A DNA stretch of 64,000 nucleotides from the NCBI GenBank assembly GCA_963809895.1, contig CAWELD010000003.1, positions 1,472,001 to 1,536,000 of the forward strand, given 5' to 3'. Positions 54,248 to 57,942 of the stretch are shown here, in pieces; position 1 is the first letter of the stretch, and each line of letters opens with the position of its first letter. This stretch comes from an uncultured Gemmatimonadales bacterium (GTDB taxonomy: Bacteria > Gemmatimonadota > Gemmatimonadetes > Longimicrobiales > Gaopeijiaceae). A program made the position numbers and the translations under genes. Under the pieces are notes generated by a model that was not told where the DNA came from, made no database searches, and worked only from the letters and a program-made list of their open reading frames with translations.

Positions 54248-55484
54248 GGCTCCTCCCCGCCGTGGCCAGGCGCTCCGTCCGGGCCAGATCCGGCACCTTG
54301 CCACGCTCCACGTGCTCGGGCCGCCAGTCCCGGTCGGTGTCCCGCGCCACGGACATGAGGATGCCCAACGCCATGAGCGTGACCACCAGGTTGGAACGCC
54401 CGTACGACACCAGCGGCAACGCCAGCCCGGTGGTGGGCACCAGACCGAGGCCCACCGCCATGTGCAGGACCGCCTGCAGGGCGATGAGGTTGGTGAAGCC
54501 CACGGCCAGGAGTTGCCCGAAGCGGTCGGGAGCGCGGCGGGCGATGCGGAATCCCAGGAGAATGATCCCCAGGTAGAGGGCCACCAGCAGCACGATGCCG
54601 CGCAGGCCCCACTCCTCACCCACCATGGCGAAGATGAAGTCGTTGTGGGGCTCGGGCAGGAAGCCGAACTTCTGCCGCCCCTGGCCGAAGCCCTGCCCCA
54701 GGAGTCCCCCGGAGCCTACGGAGATGATGGACTGGCGCACCTGGAAGCCGGCGCCCGAGGGATCGGCGGCGGGATCGAGGAAGGCCAACATGCGCTGGGC
54801 GCGGAAGCCCACGTCGAGCTGAAGCTTCAGGAAGGGCAGCCCGAGAATCCCCAGGAAGATGAAGTGCCCGATGCGCGCGCCCCCGGCGAAGACCACCATG
54901 GCGCCCAGCAGACCGATGAGGCAGGCCGTGGACAGGTCCGGCTCGAGCACGATGGGCAGCAGGAGCACGGCCCAGATGAGCAGGAAGGGCCCGAGCCCCC
55001 GGCGCAGGCTCTTGAAGTCGCCCTGCTTGCGCACGGCGAGCATGGCGGTCCAGATGACCATGGACAGCTTGGCCAGCTCCGACGGCTGCAGCGTGACGCC
55101 CGCGATGCGGAGCCAGCGGCGCGCGCCCTTGATCTCCGGCGCGATGGCCTCGGTGCCCGGAAGGATCACCACCACCAGCATGATCACGCTCACCCACAGG
55201 ATGGGCCACGCCATGCGCTGCCACACCCGATAGGGAATGCGGGCGCAGCACACCATGGCCACCAGCCCGACCGCTGCGCCGCCGGCCTGGCGAACCACGA
55301 AGTACCAATCCGGAAGCCCCTGGCGCTGGGCCAGCACCGAGCTGGCGCTGTAGAGGGTGACCAGCCCCGCCGACAGGAGGAGGAGGGTCAGCGTCATGAG
55401 AGCGGCGGGCTCCCAACCCCGGCCCAAGCCCACGTCGGGGAGCGCCACGTCGGCGGGAGCCACGTCCATGGGTCGGCGGGCCAT
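54240..55484 (-). CDS. ftsW: SEDS peptidoglycan polymerase FtsW
   Basis: LYSAS, GARRW, QPSELAK, LPEPHNDFIF and PTTGLALPLVSYG motifs. Confidence 0.96.
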   Translation of the reverse strand: MARRPMDVAPADVALPDVGLGRGWEPAALMTLTLLLLSAGLVTLYSASSVLAQRQGLPDWYFVVRQAGGAAVGLVAMVCCARIPYRVWQRMAWPILWVSVIMLVVVILPGTEAIAPEIKGARRWLRIAGVTLQPSELAKLSMVIWTAMLAVRKQGDFKSLRRGLGPFLLIWAVLLLPIVLEPDLSTACLIGLLGAMVVFAGGARIGHFIFLGILGLPFLKLQLDVGFRAQRMLAFLDPAADPSGAGFQVRQSIISVGSGGLLGQGFGQGRQKFGFLPEPHNDFIFAMVGEEWGLRGIVLLVALYLGIILLGFRIARRAPDRFGQLLAVGFTNLIALQAVLHMAVGLGLVPTTGLALPLVSYGRSNLVVTLMALGILMSVARDTDRDWRPEHVERGKVPDLARTERLATAGRSRA

Positions 55485-56839
55485 CAGGACACCCCTCCCC
55501 TGGCCAGCGCGGCGAAGCGCTCGCCCCGTTCCCGGTAGTCGTGGAACTCGTCGAAGGAGGAGCAGGCCGGGGCCAGCAGGACCACGTCACCGGCCCGTGC
55601 CACGCCCCGGGCGAGCGCCACCGCCTCGGCCAGCGCGCCGGCACGGCGCACCTCGACCACGCCCTCCAGGGCGGCGGCGAAGCGGGTGCCGGCGGCCCCG
55701 TAGCAGACGGCCGTGCGCACCCGCCCGGGAAGCGCCCGTGCCAGCGGGGCCAGCTCCTCGCCCTTGTCCTTCCCACCCAGGAGGAGGACCAGAGGCCGCT
55801 CCAGGCTGCGCACGGCGCTCACGGCGGCGGCCACGTTGGTGGCCTTGGAGTCGTTCACCCACAAGACCCCGTCCACCTCGCCCACGGGCTCCAGCCGATG
55901 GGGGAGCGGGCGGGCCGTGGCCAGGCCCCGGGACAGGGCCCCGGCCTCGGCACCCGCCAGGCGGGCGGTGAGGGCGGCGGCCAGGGCGTTGGCCACGTTG
56001 TGCATGCCCAGCAGCGGGAGCTCGGTCCGAGCCAGTAGCGGCTCGGCAGGGCCCCCGGATTCCAGGCGCAGCGTCAGCGTGTCGTCCTGCACGAAGGCCT
56101 CGACGCCCTCGCCGCGTTCGACGCTGAAGGTGTAGCGGCGCCCCGGCGCGCCACCGGCCAACTCGCGGCACTCGGGCTGATCGCCCAGCACCCAGCGGCT
56201 GTCGGCGGTGGCGTTGTCGAACAGGCGCGCCTTGTCGCCCCAGTACGCCTCGACCGACGGGTAGCGGTCCAGGTGATCGGGAGCCAGCGAGGTGAGCACG
56301 CCGATGTCGGGCGCGAAGGTGTCCACGTCGGCCAGCTGGAAGGAGCTGACCTCCAGGACGTACCAGTCCGGCGGCGGCTCCACGAGAGCGAGCGCCGACG
56401 CCGCCGGCGCCAGCCCTCCTCCCACGTTGCCGCCCCAGGCCACGGCCAGCCCCGCCTCTTCCAGGAGGTGGGCCGTGAGCGCCGTGGTGGTGGTCTTCCC
56501 GTTCGTGCCCGTCACGGCGATCAGTGGACCGCGGTAGAACCGAACGGCGAACTCGGGCTCGCTGATCCAGCGCACGCCCCGGTCTCGGAGAGCCGAGAGC
56601 ACCGGAGCGTCCGGGGGGATTCCAGGACTGACCACGACGAGCTCGGCCGCGGCGATGCGGGCCAGGTCGTGTGATCCCAGCTCGACGTCGGCTCCCAGGG
56701 CTCGGAGCTGGGCTCCACGAGCTGCAGTCGGGGCATGAGTGTCGAGATCCGAGACATGAACGTCTCCTCCTTGTTGAAGGGCCAGGCGGGCGGCGGCTTC
56801 GCCGCTGCTGCCGAGCCCCAGGACAGCGATTCGGGTCAC
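55484..56839 (-). CDS. murD: UDP-MurNAc-L-Ala--D-Glu ligase
   Basis: VLGLGSSG, VSPGIP, TGTNGKTTT, EVSSFQL, NDSKATN and PACSSFD motifs; GTG at 56839. Confidence 0.96.
   Translation of the reverse strand: MTRIAVLGLGSSGEAAARLALQQGGDVHVSDLDTHAPTAARGAQLRALGADVELGSHDLARIAAAELVVVSPGIPPDAPVLSALRDRGVRWISEPEFAVRFYRGPLIAVTGTNGKTTTTALTAHLLEEAGLAVAWGGNVGGGLAPAASALALVEPPPDWYVLEVSSFQLADVDTFAPDIGVLTSLAPDHLDRYPSVEAYWGDKARLFDNATADSRWVLGDQPECRELAGGAPGRRYTFSVERGEGVEAFVQDDTLTLRLESGGPAEPLLARTELPLLGMHNVANALAAALTARLAGAEAGALSRGLATARPLPHRLEPVGEVDGVLWVNDSKATNVAAAVSAVRSLERPLVLLLGGKDKGEELAPLARALPGRVRTAVCYGAAGTRFAAALEGVVEVRRAGALAEAVALARGVARAGDVVLLAPACSSFDEFHDYRERGERFAALARGGVS
56521..56757 (-). CDS. Candidate 78-aa overprinted ORF nested in murD (+1 frame)
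   Basis: AAGGAGG (56772-56766)-N8-ATG; murD third positions are strongly A/T-enriched over the same interval. Confidence 0.4.
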   Translation of the reverse strand: MSRISTLMPRLQLVEPSSEPWEPTSSWDHTTWPASPRPSSSWSVLESPRTLRCSRLSETGACAGSASPSSPFGSTAVH

Positions 56840-57942
56840 CGGATCTTCAGCGTCGAAACGGCGACCATTGCGAACAGGATTCCCAGGATCCAGAAGCGGA
56901 TGACGACCTTGGTCTCCGGCCACCCGAGCTTCTCGAAGTGGTGGTGGAGCGGCGCCATCCGGAACACGCGGCGGCCCTCGCCGTAGCGGCGGGCCGTGTA
57001 GCGGAACCAACCGACCTGCACCATCACCGACAGGCCTTCCAGAACGAAGACGCCGCCCACGATGAGGAGCAGGAACTCGCTCTTGAGCAGGATGGCCATG
57101 ACGGCCAGCGCCCCCCCGATGGCCAGGGAGCCCGTGTCTCCCATGAAGACCTCGGCGGGGTGCGCGTTGAACCAGAGAAAGCCGATGGCGGCGCCGGTCA
57201 GCGCCAGGCCGAACACCACCATCTCGCCGGAGCCGGGCAGGTAGAACAGGCCCAGGTACGACGACGTGTCGATGCGGCCCGTGACGTAGGCCAGCAGCGC
57301 GAAGGTGGCGGCGGCGATGGCGCCCAGACCCCCGGCGAGCCCGTCGAGCCCGTCGGTGAGGTTCACCGCGTTGGAGGTGAATCCCACCAGGAGCGTGACG
57401 AAGACGACGAAGGCCGACGGCCAGAAGGCGGCCACGTAGTCCGAGAAGAAGGGCACCTGCGTCCAGCTGCCCGGATAGGGCGAGATGGGATGCAGGATCA
57501 GGAACAGCCCCAGGGCCAGCCCGAAGGTGAGCTGGCCGGCGAGCTTGGCCCGTGCCACCAGCCCCTTGGAGGACTTGCGCACCACCTTGAGGTAGTCGTC
57601 CAGGAACCCGATGGCGCCCATCCACACCAATGCCAGCAGACAGAGCGCGGTGTACCAGTTGTCGAGCTGCGCCCACAGCAGGGTGGAGATGACGGCCGAC
57701 GACACGATCAGCGTGCCGCCCATGGTGGGCGTGCCGGCCTTGCCCAGATGCGACTTCGGACCCTCCTCCCGCACCACCTGTCCCACCTTGAGACGCGTGA
57801 GCCAGCGGATGGTGGCGGGCCCCAGGAAGAATGCGATCAACAGTGCCGTCACCACCGCGCCCGCCGCCCGGAAGGTCAGGTAGCGGAAGAGGTTGAAGAC
57901 GATGTGCACGTCGGCCAGAGGCGGAAGGAGGTGGTAGAGCAT
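56836..57942 (-). CDS. mraY: Phospho-MurNAc-pentapeptide transferase
   Basis: KAGTPTMGG, DDYLK, NAVNLTDGLDGL, FMGDTGS and MAPLHHHFE motifs. Confidence 0.98.
   Translation of the reverse strand: MLYHLLPPLADVHIVFNLFRYLTFRAAGAVVTALLIAFFLGPATIRWLTRLKVGQVVREEGPKSHLGKAGTPTMGGTLIVSSAVISTLLWAQLDNWYTALCLLALVWMGAIGFLDDYLKVVRKSSKGLVARAKLAGQLTFGLALGLFLILHPISPYPGSWTQVPFFSDYVAAFWPSAFVVFVTLLVGFTSNAVNLTDGLDGLAGGLGAIAAATFALLAYVTGRIDTSSYLGLFYLPGSGEMVVFGLALTGAAIGFLWFNAHPAEVFMGDTGSLAIGGALAVMAILLKSEFLLLIVGGVFVLEGLSVMVQVGWFRYTARRYGEGRRVFRMAPLHHHFEKLGWPETKVVIRFWILGILFAMVAVSTLKIR

Follow-up and report, generated by a model that had tools for sequence, protein, structure and literature searches.

In Bacillus subtilis, ComS acts on regulated proteolysis as a decoy for MecA/ClpCP. 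Its gene, comS, is described as a same-strand, out-of-frame small gene lying wholly inside the larger gene srfAB (PMC12350097, 10.1101/520783). In E. coli, gndA encodes a same-strand, frameshifted microprotein inside the housekeeping gene gnd (PMC11230408); it is reported to span 36 aa and to start at UUG, with a Shine-Dalgarno (SD) sequence that differs between strains (10.1101/520783). According to the same source, the accepted bacterial same-strand nested genes are few and most candidates are poorly conserved, most of the E. coli out-of-frame starts showing no significant conservation (10.1101/520783), and de novo gene birth in bacteria has been called unresolved (PMC12315717). The overprinted genes olg1 and olg2 of Pseudomonas aeruginosa, which are antisense, long and confined roughly to one species or genus, are reported to be under purifying selection and were shown by Ribo-seq and mass spectrometry (PMC8850804). 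Our literature search, which covered the main text of mostly open papers, returned no report of the nested murD ORF described here (a supplementary proteogenomic table could list it).

The window, i.e. the whole stretch of 64,000 nucleotides that was analysed, carries a minus-strand dcw cluster (rsmH, ftsI, murE, murF, mraY, murD, ftsW, murG, murC, ftsQ, ftsA, ftsZ), in which murD was named via Pfam and the remaining genes from our own reading of the translations. A preliminary description of this DNA had proposed that murD harbors an overprinted ORF preceded by a perfect SD and accompanied by an anomaly at synonymous sites. The features concerned are the following:

55484..56839, minus strand, murD, the host gene, 451 aa, with Pfam domains MurD-like_N, Mur_ligase_M and Mur_ligase_C
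56836..57942, minus strand, mraY, the gene upstream of murD, with 0 of 368 third-position columns fixed as A/T
56521..56757, minus strand, putative nested +1 ORF of 78 codons plus TGA, equivalent to murD codons 28-106, from the reading frame and the comparison of relatives
56766..56772, minus strand, SD sequence AAGGAGG of the nested ORF, provided by murD codons 23-25, from sequence and relatives

The coordinates were exact, AAGGAGG (56772-56766) standing 8 nt ahead of the +1-frame ATG at 56757 and the frame remaining open for 78 codons up to the TGA at 56523-56521. A recount of the murD codons ending in A/T agreed with the earlier figures (28/85 in codons 21-105 vs 6/85 in codons 106-190); from codon 106 to the end of the gene the count is 25/347, and the highest value per 85-codon block in 11 neighboring dcw genes is 15. 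The codon anomaly has a Fisher p of 6e-9 over the codons originally delimited and of 1.5e-5 over the ORF proper (22/78 vs 33/373). Within the 3870 crudely called genes of the genome there are 525 nested ORFs of at least 40 codons with ATG and SD, and the latter p value would be the fifth among them, at least two of those ahead being real genes miscalled by the script. In the source genome alone, the open +1 frame and the ATG are unremarkable under synonymous recoding (P = 0.24 in each case), and therefore it is the relatives that decide the matter. The 16S tail of this genome is canonical, and folding of the nested start region is weak, at -10.6 as against -19 to -21 kcal/mol. On the strand opposite to murD, a terminator-like hairpin at 56751-56766 (+) overlaps the nested SD and start (one found, 0.1 expected in the source genome). 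Elsewhere in the genome, beyond the limits of the window, the reading frame of a leucyl-tRNA synthetase-like gene (G000:C10:364999-369480, minus strand) passes from 0 to +1 around codon 534, the KMSKS motif lying in +1; the frame change is probably an assembly indel.

The murD gene starts at a GTG at 56839 that overlaps the mraY stop, and this upstream start is used because the protein encoded by codons 3-20 is conserved, at 83% pairwise identity, and their synonymous divergence is an ordinary 0.37. The same conservation led us to reject a MurD start at the nested ATG reached via a frameshift. Our crude gene caller placed the murD start at 56575 (window 56575-55484), thereby leaving out the greater part of the overlap, and MurD may likewise be truncated by automatic annotation across the family. 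The annotation cost is that gene finders sometimes call the nested ORF, and that the crude caller shortened murD.

The murD DNA was read in 51 genomes of the family (f1) and in 33 outgroup genomes. Those relatives that bear names assign the source organism to Gemmatimonadota. The best 30 murD loci among 61 genomes (60-75% MurD identity, source included) all keep the ATG at codon 28, the +1 frame open for 77-78 codons and the TGA. Alignment of the related murD genes revealed ATG, open +1 frame and TGA together in 44 of the 46 family genomes outside the genus g6, the ATG alone in 45 of them, an SD match of at least 4 nt in 43 (vs 13/33 in the outgroup) and both SD and ATG in 42 (vs 3/33). Over all 51 family genomes the ATG occurs in 48 (expected 11.0) and the open frame in 49 (expected 16.3), whereas in the 33 outgroup genomes the ATG occurs in 7 (expected 4.3), the open frame in 7 (expected 8.7) and both together in 1, bearing in mind that kin are not independent and that such ratios of observed to expected overstate significance. 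The 44 family genomes hereafter called carriers were defined on the feature itself, which set aside g6, L058 and L074; in all 44 of them the third position of murD codon 24 is A, and in 7/38 non-carriers it is A or T. The stop is a cheap one, as the common Leu-Ile codon pair coincides with the nested TGA, which is present at that place in 16/38 non-carriers. The five g6 genomes that were read show background codon use in the overlap and a +1 frame that ends in Arg or reads on; they still have an open frame in 4/5, the ATG in 3/5 and an SD-like word in 4/5 cases.

A profile made from the 44 carrier peptides matched, by hand count, 293 of the 301 family genomes (258 at E <= 3e-18, 35 at >= 1e-15, 8 with no match), and matches were obtained in 80 of the 81 genera searched. 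In the sister families the same profile matched in 3/51 and 14/50 genomes, none better than 3e-8 and 14 of these 17 with stops, a tally that includes the unpublished G037, G056 and G486, on none of which any claim rests singly. In the low-GC genus g120 (GC 0.45, 1.7-2.0 Mb), 5/5 genomes keep AAGGAGG, ATG, the open frame and an M-V-H-stop end, with P(open) between 0.0003 and 0.022 for each genome, and all 3 of the g162 genomes read keep the nested ORF, so that a weak profile score does not always mean loss. A free-standing homologue was sought and discarded, second profile matches in 5 genomes being second or partial murD copies in 3 and weak matches with stops in the others. As for murD copies, G372 has two divergent ones (L093 and L097), both with the nested ORF, and the second copies of G229 (L098) and G416 (L099) are cut by contig ends; duplication or bin contamination would account for these cases. 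The carriers L075 and L055 differ from the others in spacing, one having a five-residue insertion before the Leu11 motif described below (83 aa) and the other having the L-Q-P-V word two residues later with no gap in murD.

The +1 frame of the carriers also bears the marks of selection. Analysis of 18 non-overlapping carrier tip pairs gave a synonymous divergence of murD of 0.268 in codons 28-105 vs 0.446 in codons 110-440, lower in the overlap in 17/18 pairs, whereas in 13 outgroup pairs the values were 0.391 and 0.382, lower in the overlap in 5/13. The constraint sits mainly in nested residues 1-15, with a divergence of 0.147, and in the final 11 codons, with 0.093, and residues 55-68 are free of it (0.456 vs 0.446). 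The +1-frame dNN/dNS, computed only from changes that alter MurD, was 0.475 in the overlap of the carriers (bootstrap 0.28-0.77), with control values of 1.11 downstream in the carriers and 0.87 and 1.04 in the outgroup. A or T is fixed in at least 70% of the carriers at 14 of 85 codons, all but one of them T-specific or A-specific, and such codons number 0/358 in the rest of murD, 0/368 in mraY and 0/385 in ftsW. The situation that the preliminary description had set against its own reading, i.e. relatives devoid of SD and ATG, with scattered stops and normal synonymous divergence, was looked for and is not what the family displays. Comparison of the relatives shows that the putative nested gene is under protein-level selection.

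That an RNA structure, a promoter, a binding site or chance accounts for the codon anomaly is highly improbable. Of the two alternatives that had been put forward at the outset, the embedded RNA element finds no support, the consensus fold of 42 sequences reaching -4.2 kcal/mol with a covariation of 0.04 and a compensatory change in 0/7 pairs, and no Rfam family reaches threshold at the locus; as for the internal promoter, no sigma-70 site was found, and both mraY and murD codons 3-20 are devoid of fixed A/T positions. A single weak helix of five pairs is predicted to cover the C-terminal codons of the nested ORF and the opposite-strand hairpin mentioned above overlaps the SD in the source genome, and both would fit a non-coding element; against it, the signal is frame-specific and confined between start and stop. 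The nested ORF is very probably a real gene, and a hidden small protein inside murD is the favored option, by virtue of the kept SD, ATG, frame and stop and of the frame-specific purifying selection.

The product appears to be made of two short motifs and a linker whose length is set by the host gene, and a third motif is found in some of the carriers:

56713..56757, minus strand, N-terminal motif, residues 1-15, M-S-R-I-x-x-L-x-P-x-L-Q-L/P-V-E/Q, with Leu11 fixed and a divergence of 0.147 vs 0.446
56599..56628, minus strand, middle motif, residues 44-53, V-L-E-S-P-R-T-L-R-C, with Glu46 and Leu51 each in 35/44 carriers
56521..56550, minus strand, C-terminal motif, residues 70-78, S-P-F/H-G-S-x-x-V-H plus stop, the candidate Lon-binding end, with a divergence of 0.093

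Leu11 is present in 44/44 carriers via CTG, TTG or CTC codons, while the MurD residue at that place is T, V, A or I, and the N-terminal motif is kept in the low-GC g120 as well. The middle motif is conserved only in high-GC carriers and is not kept in g120. At the C terminus, His78 occurs in 43/44 carriers, while the MurD residue there is P, A, S, E or T; Val77 occurs in 35/44 and the TGA in 44/44. In the widest sample only M1, S2, L11, V77 and H78 exceed 90%. AlphaFold2 gave a pTM of 0.15, a mean pLDDT of 60 and no secondary structure, and the product looks disordered in this model.

Pfam contained no family matching the window protein at E values up to 10, 1 of 31 members had one NCBIfam match (E 0.049), and PDB yielded no sequence match. 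The database homologues, among proteins of 42-146 aa, were only 17 proteins of 78 or 83 aa that correspond to the nested ORF called by gene finders. One database protein, P0017, follows the nested frame at both ends and switches to the MurD frame in between, over about residues 29-65; it occurs on one contig only and is probably due to two sequencing indels. The clusters obtained from ESM Atlas were all of Mur ligases, a result that according to the tool can arise from a wrong frame over a real gene. A scan of the proteome for mimics of the N-terminal motif gave nothing usable (best score 13.0 vs 19.7 for the motif itself and 10.2 in the reversed proteome). As a ClpX-binding (SspB XB-like) element, for which the consensus L-K-x-h is given (PMC7226468), the motif does not fit, its second position being mostly Q (L-Q-L-V in 24/44 and L-Q-P-V in 6/44 carriers); SspB was not found in the source genome. 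The predicted complex of the ClpX zinc-domain with residues 1-32 scored 0.02, which speaks neither for nor against an interaction.

The act of translation itself, through damped murD elongation or mRNA protection, could be what matters, the peptide being waste that its Val-His end routes to Lon-B, one of the two Lon proteases considered below. A strong SD and a weakly folded start in a gene that relies on the overlap with the mraY stop (26/44 carriers match the pattern of such a murD start) would suit this mechanism, as would the unconstrained residues 55-68 and the absence of a fold. It is nevertheless distinctly improbable, since Leu11 is held by synonymous +1 codons at the cost of a MurD amino-acid change, each fixed site keeps T or A specifically and not just either of the two, with one exception, and dNN/dNS is below 1. 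A restart in the murD frame after the nested TGA was also discarded, as murD codon 109 varies and is not a conserved start, which again speaks against the act of translation. The preliminary description had left room for a translational control element, and a purely translational-control role would not explain the residue-specific constraint.

The C terminus of the predicted protein led us to Lon. A Lon degron class that includes SulA and has the consensus x-L/I-L/I/V-H, which is the Yersinia degron consensus, is described as being determined chiefly by its terminal His, and one working degron ends in F-T-V-H (PMC11986505); the 89-aa Lon activator LarA ends with V86, V88 and H89 (PMC10665427). 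The 44 carriers have a terminal His in 43 and a penultimate V in 35 or L in 1; the third-last L/I of the consensus is seen as L in 3/44, the residue being mostly R, M or A, and 5/44 end in A-R-H. Chance +1 nested ORFs in the source genome end in His in 5/413 cases and in V-H in none. From the likeness of the Val-His end to Lon degrons and LarA, a link to Lon was predicted ahead of the co-occurrence tests. A LexA-domain protein encoded outside the window (G000:C3:644646-645290, plus strand) also ends in His and is a possible further Lon substrate.

The two Lon genes of the source genome share 46% identity; Lon-A stands alone and Lon-B lies between clpX and engB:

C3:1736064 onward, outside the window, Lon-B, adjoining clpX

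Lon-B was scored as present when an N-domain match reached 1e-27 or when either the N-domain or the protease domain was matched twice. The 293 scored genomes out of 301 in the family comprised 29 ORF losses (19 g6 genomes, 5 of them read and 14 classed by profile score alone, plus G018, G173, G243, G288, G327, G340, G362, G417, G311 and G371) and 264 carriers, of which about 180 were seen stop-free in listings or reads and about 85 were assigned by score alone. By hand tally, Lon-B was found in 0/29 ORF-loss genomes vs 254/264 carriers, although G173, whose clpX locus is unassembled, and G422, which is 67% complete, are uninformative in this regard. The 10 carriers lacking Lon-B include 8 genomes that are less than 90% complete, and G285 and G451, which are without clpX in the assembly too. 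G311 and G371, the first apparent exceptions, have a TAG at nested codon 18 of an otherwise nearly intact ORF, and their clpX abuts engB; a stop can therefore hide behind a carrier-level profile score. Synteny gave the same picture, with clpX next to engB in 9/9 loss genomes whose locus was recovered and clpX next to lon in 4/4 carriers. On a quick MurD tree built outside the overlap (83 rows), 6 losses are needed, at least 3 of which are forced by well-supported branches. A link between the nested ORF and Lon-B is thus probable.

It could be argued that the gene is real and acts elsewhere through its product, its loss with Lon-B being the outcome of a change of lifestyle common to both, and the small number of independent events (3 to 6) is consistent with this possibility. 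We consider it improbable, since the Lon link had been predicted from sequence first, the loss genomes measure 1.8-4.8 Mb while the g120 genomes, of 1.7-2.0 Mb, keep both ORF and Lon-B, and the three control genes HslV, LexA and MraZ are kept in 12/12 loss genomes, as is Lon-A in the loss genomes; one carrier lacks HslV.

Outside the family, the sister families f2 and f3 are without the ORF and without a lon gene beside clpX (7/7 loci), and Lon-B orthologues occur without the ORF in f5 (7/9) and f13 (3/3), a tally that includes the unpublished G037, G536 and G537, none of which is among the ten Lon-B holders; the 9 of those with murD read have no ORF. It follows that Lon-B is older, that the ORF arose beside it in f1, and that Lon-B is not everywhere dependent on the ORF. 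In two genomes of family f4 (genus g52), the N-terminal domain match of a second Lon-like gene (G094:C57:62629-63357 and the G100:C144/C214 region) contains an in-frame TAG.

The ORF was never seen dead while Lon-B was present, and its decay after the loss of Lon-B is graded, from one stop, through a lost start with a Val-Arg end, to a full return to host codon use. Co-occurrence is what speaks for the putative dependence on the Lon protease, and it does not separate a modulator from a substrate. The product might be a short-lived SulA-like effector that uses its N-terminal motif to block a protein of division or of the cell wall and is cleared by Lon-B, so that the loss of Lon-B would force inactivation of the ORF. 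The selection and co-loss data are equally compatible with such an effector, SulA is reported to have a terminal-His degron of this kind (PMC11986505), the ORF sits in the dcw operon, and both recent Lon-B losers share the premature stop at codon 18. However, the death of the ORF should then come before that of Lon-B, and Lon-B is kept in 0/29 dead-ORF genomes; Lon-B persists without the ORF in f5 and f13, no Pfam or NCBIfam relation to SulA was detected, and the motif scan of the proteome gave no target. An effector is therefore rather unlikely. A modulator of Lon-B fits somewhat better than a toxic substrate, because the ORF is never dead alongside Lon-B and decays gradually afterwards.

We give about an even chance to the overall proposal that the ORF encodes a de novo overprinted modulator of Lon-B, made from the dcw mRNA in a family of Gemmatimonadota. 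According to this proposal, the same-strand overprinted gene arose inside murD in the ancestor of the family, as the comparative evidence shows, and ribosomes would load at the internal SD and ATG on the dcw mRNA to produce a 78-aa disordered protein. Its Val-His C terminus may dock on the clpX-adjacent Lon-B, and the N-terminal Leu11 motif may contact a second site or a partner. The product would then modulate Lon-B, either as an activator or adaptor in the manner of LarA, HspQ and SmiA or as a decoy in the manner of ComS, and would itself be turned over, the activity of Lon-B being thereby tied to the expression of the cell-wall and division operon. Inside murD the ORF could not be deleted, hence its presumed decay by point mutation once Lon-B is gone. 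The more specific version, a regulator dedicated to one Lon paralogue through which dcw translation sets Lon activity, with a mutual dependence that would underlie the several joint losses, falls just short of an even chance and is put forward tentatively.

The locus offers a datable birth, as the ORF is absent from sister families and present in most of one family, together with repeated deaths in graded decay, a partner gene that can be named and a selection signal that each frame shows separately. The building of a new protein in an essential gene and its recruitment into proteolysis thereby become open to testing, and the locus suggests an unrecognised link between the expression of cell-wall genes and protein destruction. 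The Lon regulators named in PMC10665427 are SmiA, HspQ and LarA, and few have been described (PMC10665427).

Among these regulators, LarA (DUF1150) is reported to bind and activate Lon via its V-x-V-H end (PMC10665427) and, as the murD ORF product, is a small protein with a V-H end; LarA, HspQ and SmiA, however, are encoded by free-standing heat-shock genes, whereas the murD ORF is overprinted, has no Pfam match and no predicted helix. The terminal His and penultimate Val are shared with the SulA degron class, from which the product differs in its third-last residue, mostly R, M or A, and in having no SulA homology. It is no member of the LarA, HspQ (YccV) or SulA families, and may be similar to them in its working. 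In contrast to most E. coli out-of-frame starts, the nested murD ORF spans most of a family. It was tested for selection in much the same ways as olg1 and olg2, but it is sense, short and family-wide, and, unlike them and unlike comS, it is a gene predicted from sequence. With comS it has in common being same-strand, out-of-frame and wholly inside a host whose frame is intact, although here the host is an essential peptidoglycan ligase, the protease would be Lon and there is no sequence relation. Like gndA, it is a same-strand, frameshifted ORF inside a housekeeping gene, with 78 codons and an ATG start as differences. By sequence criteria, the murD ORF belongs with the same-strand nested genes represented by comS and gndA.
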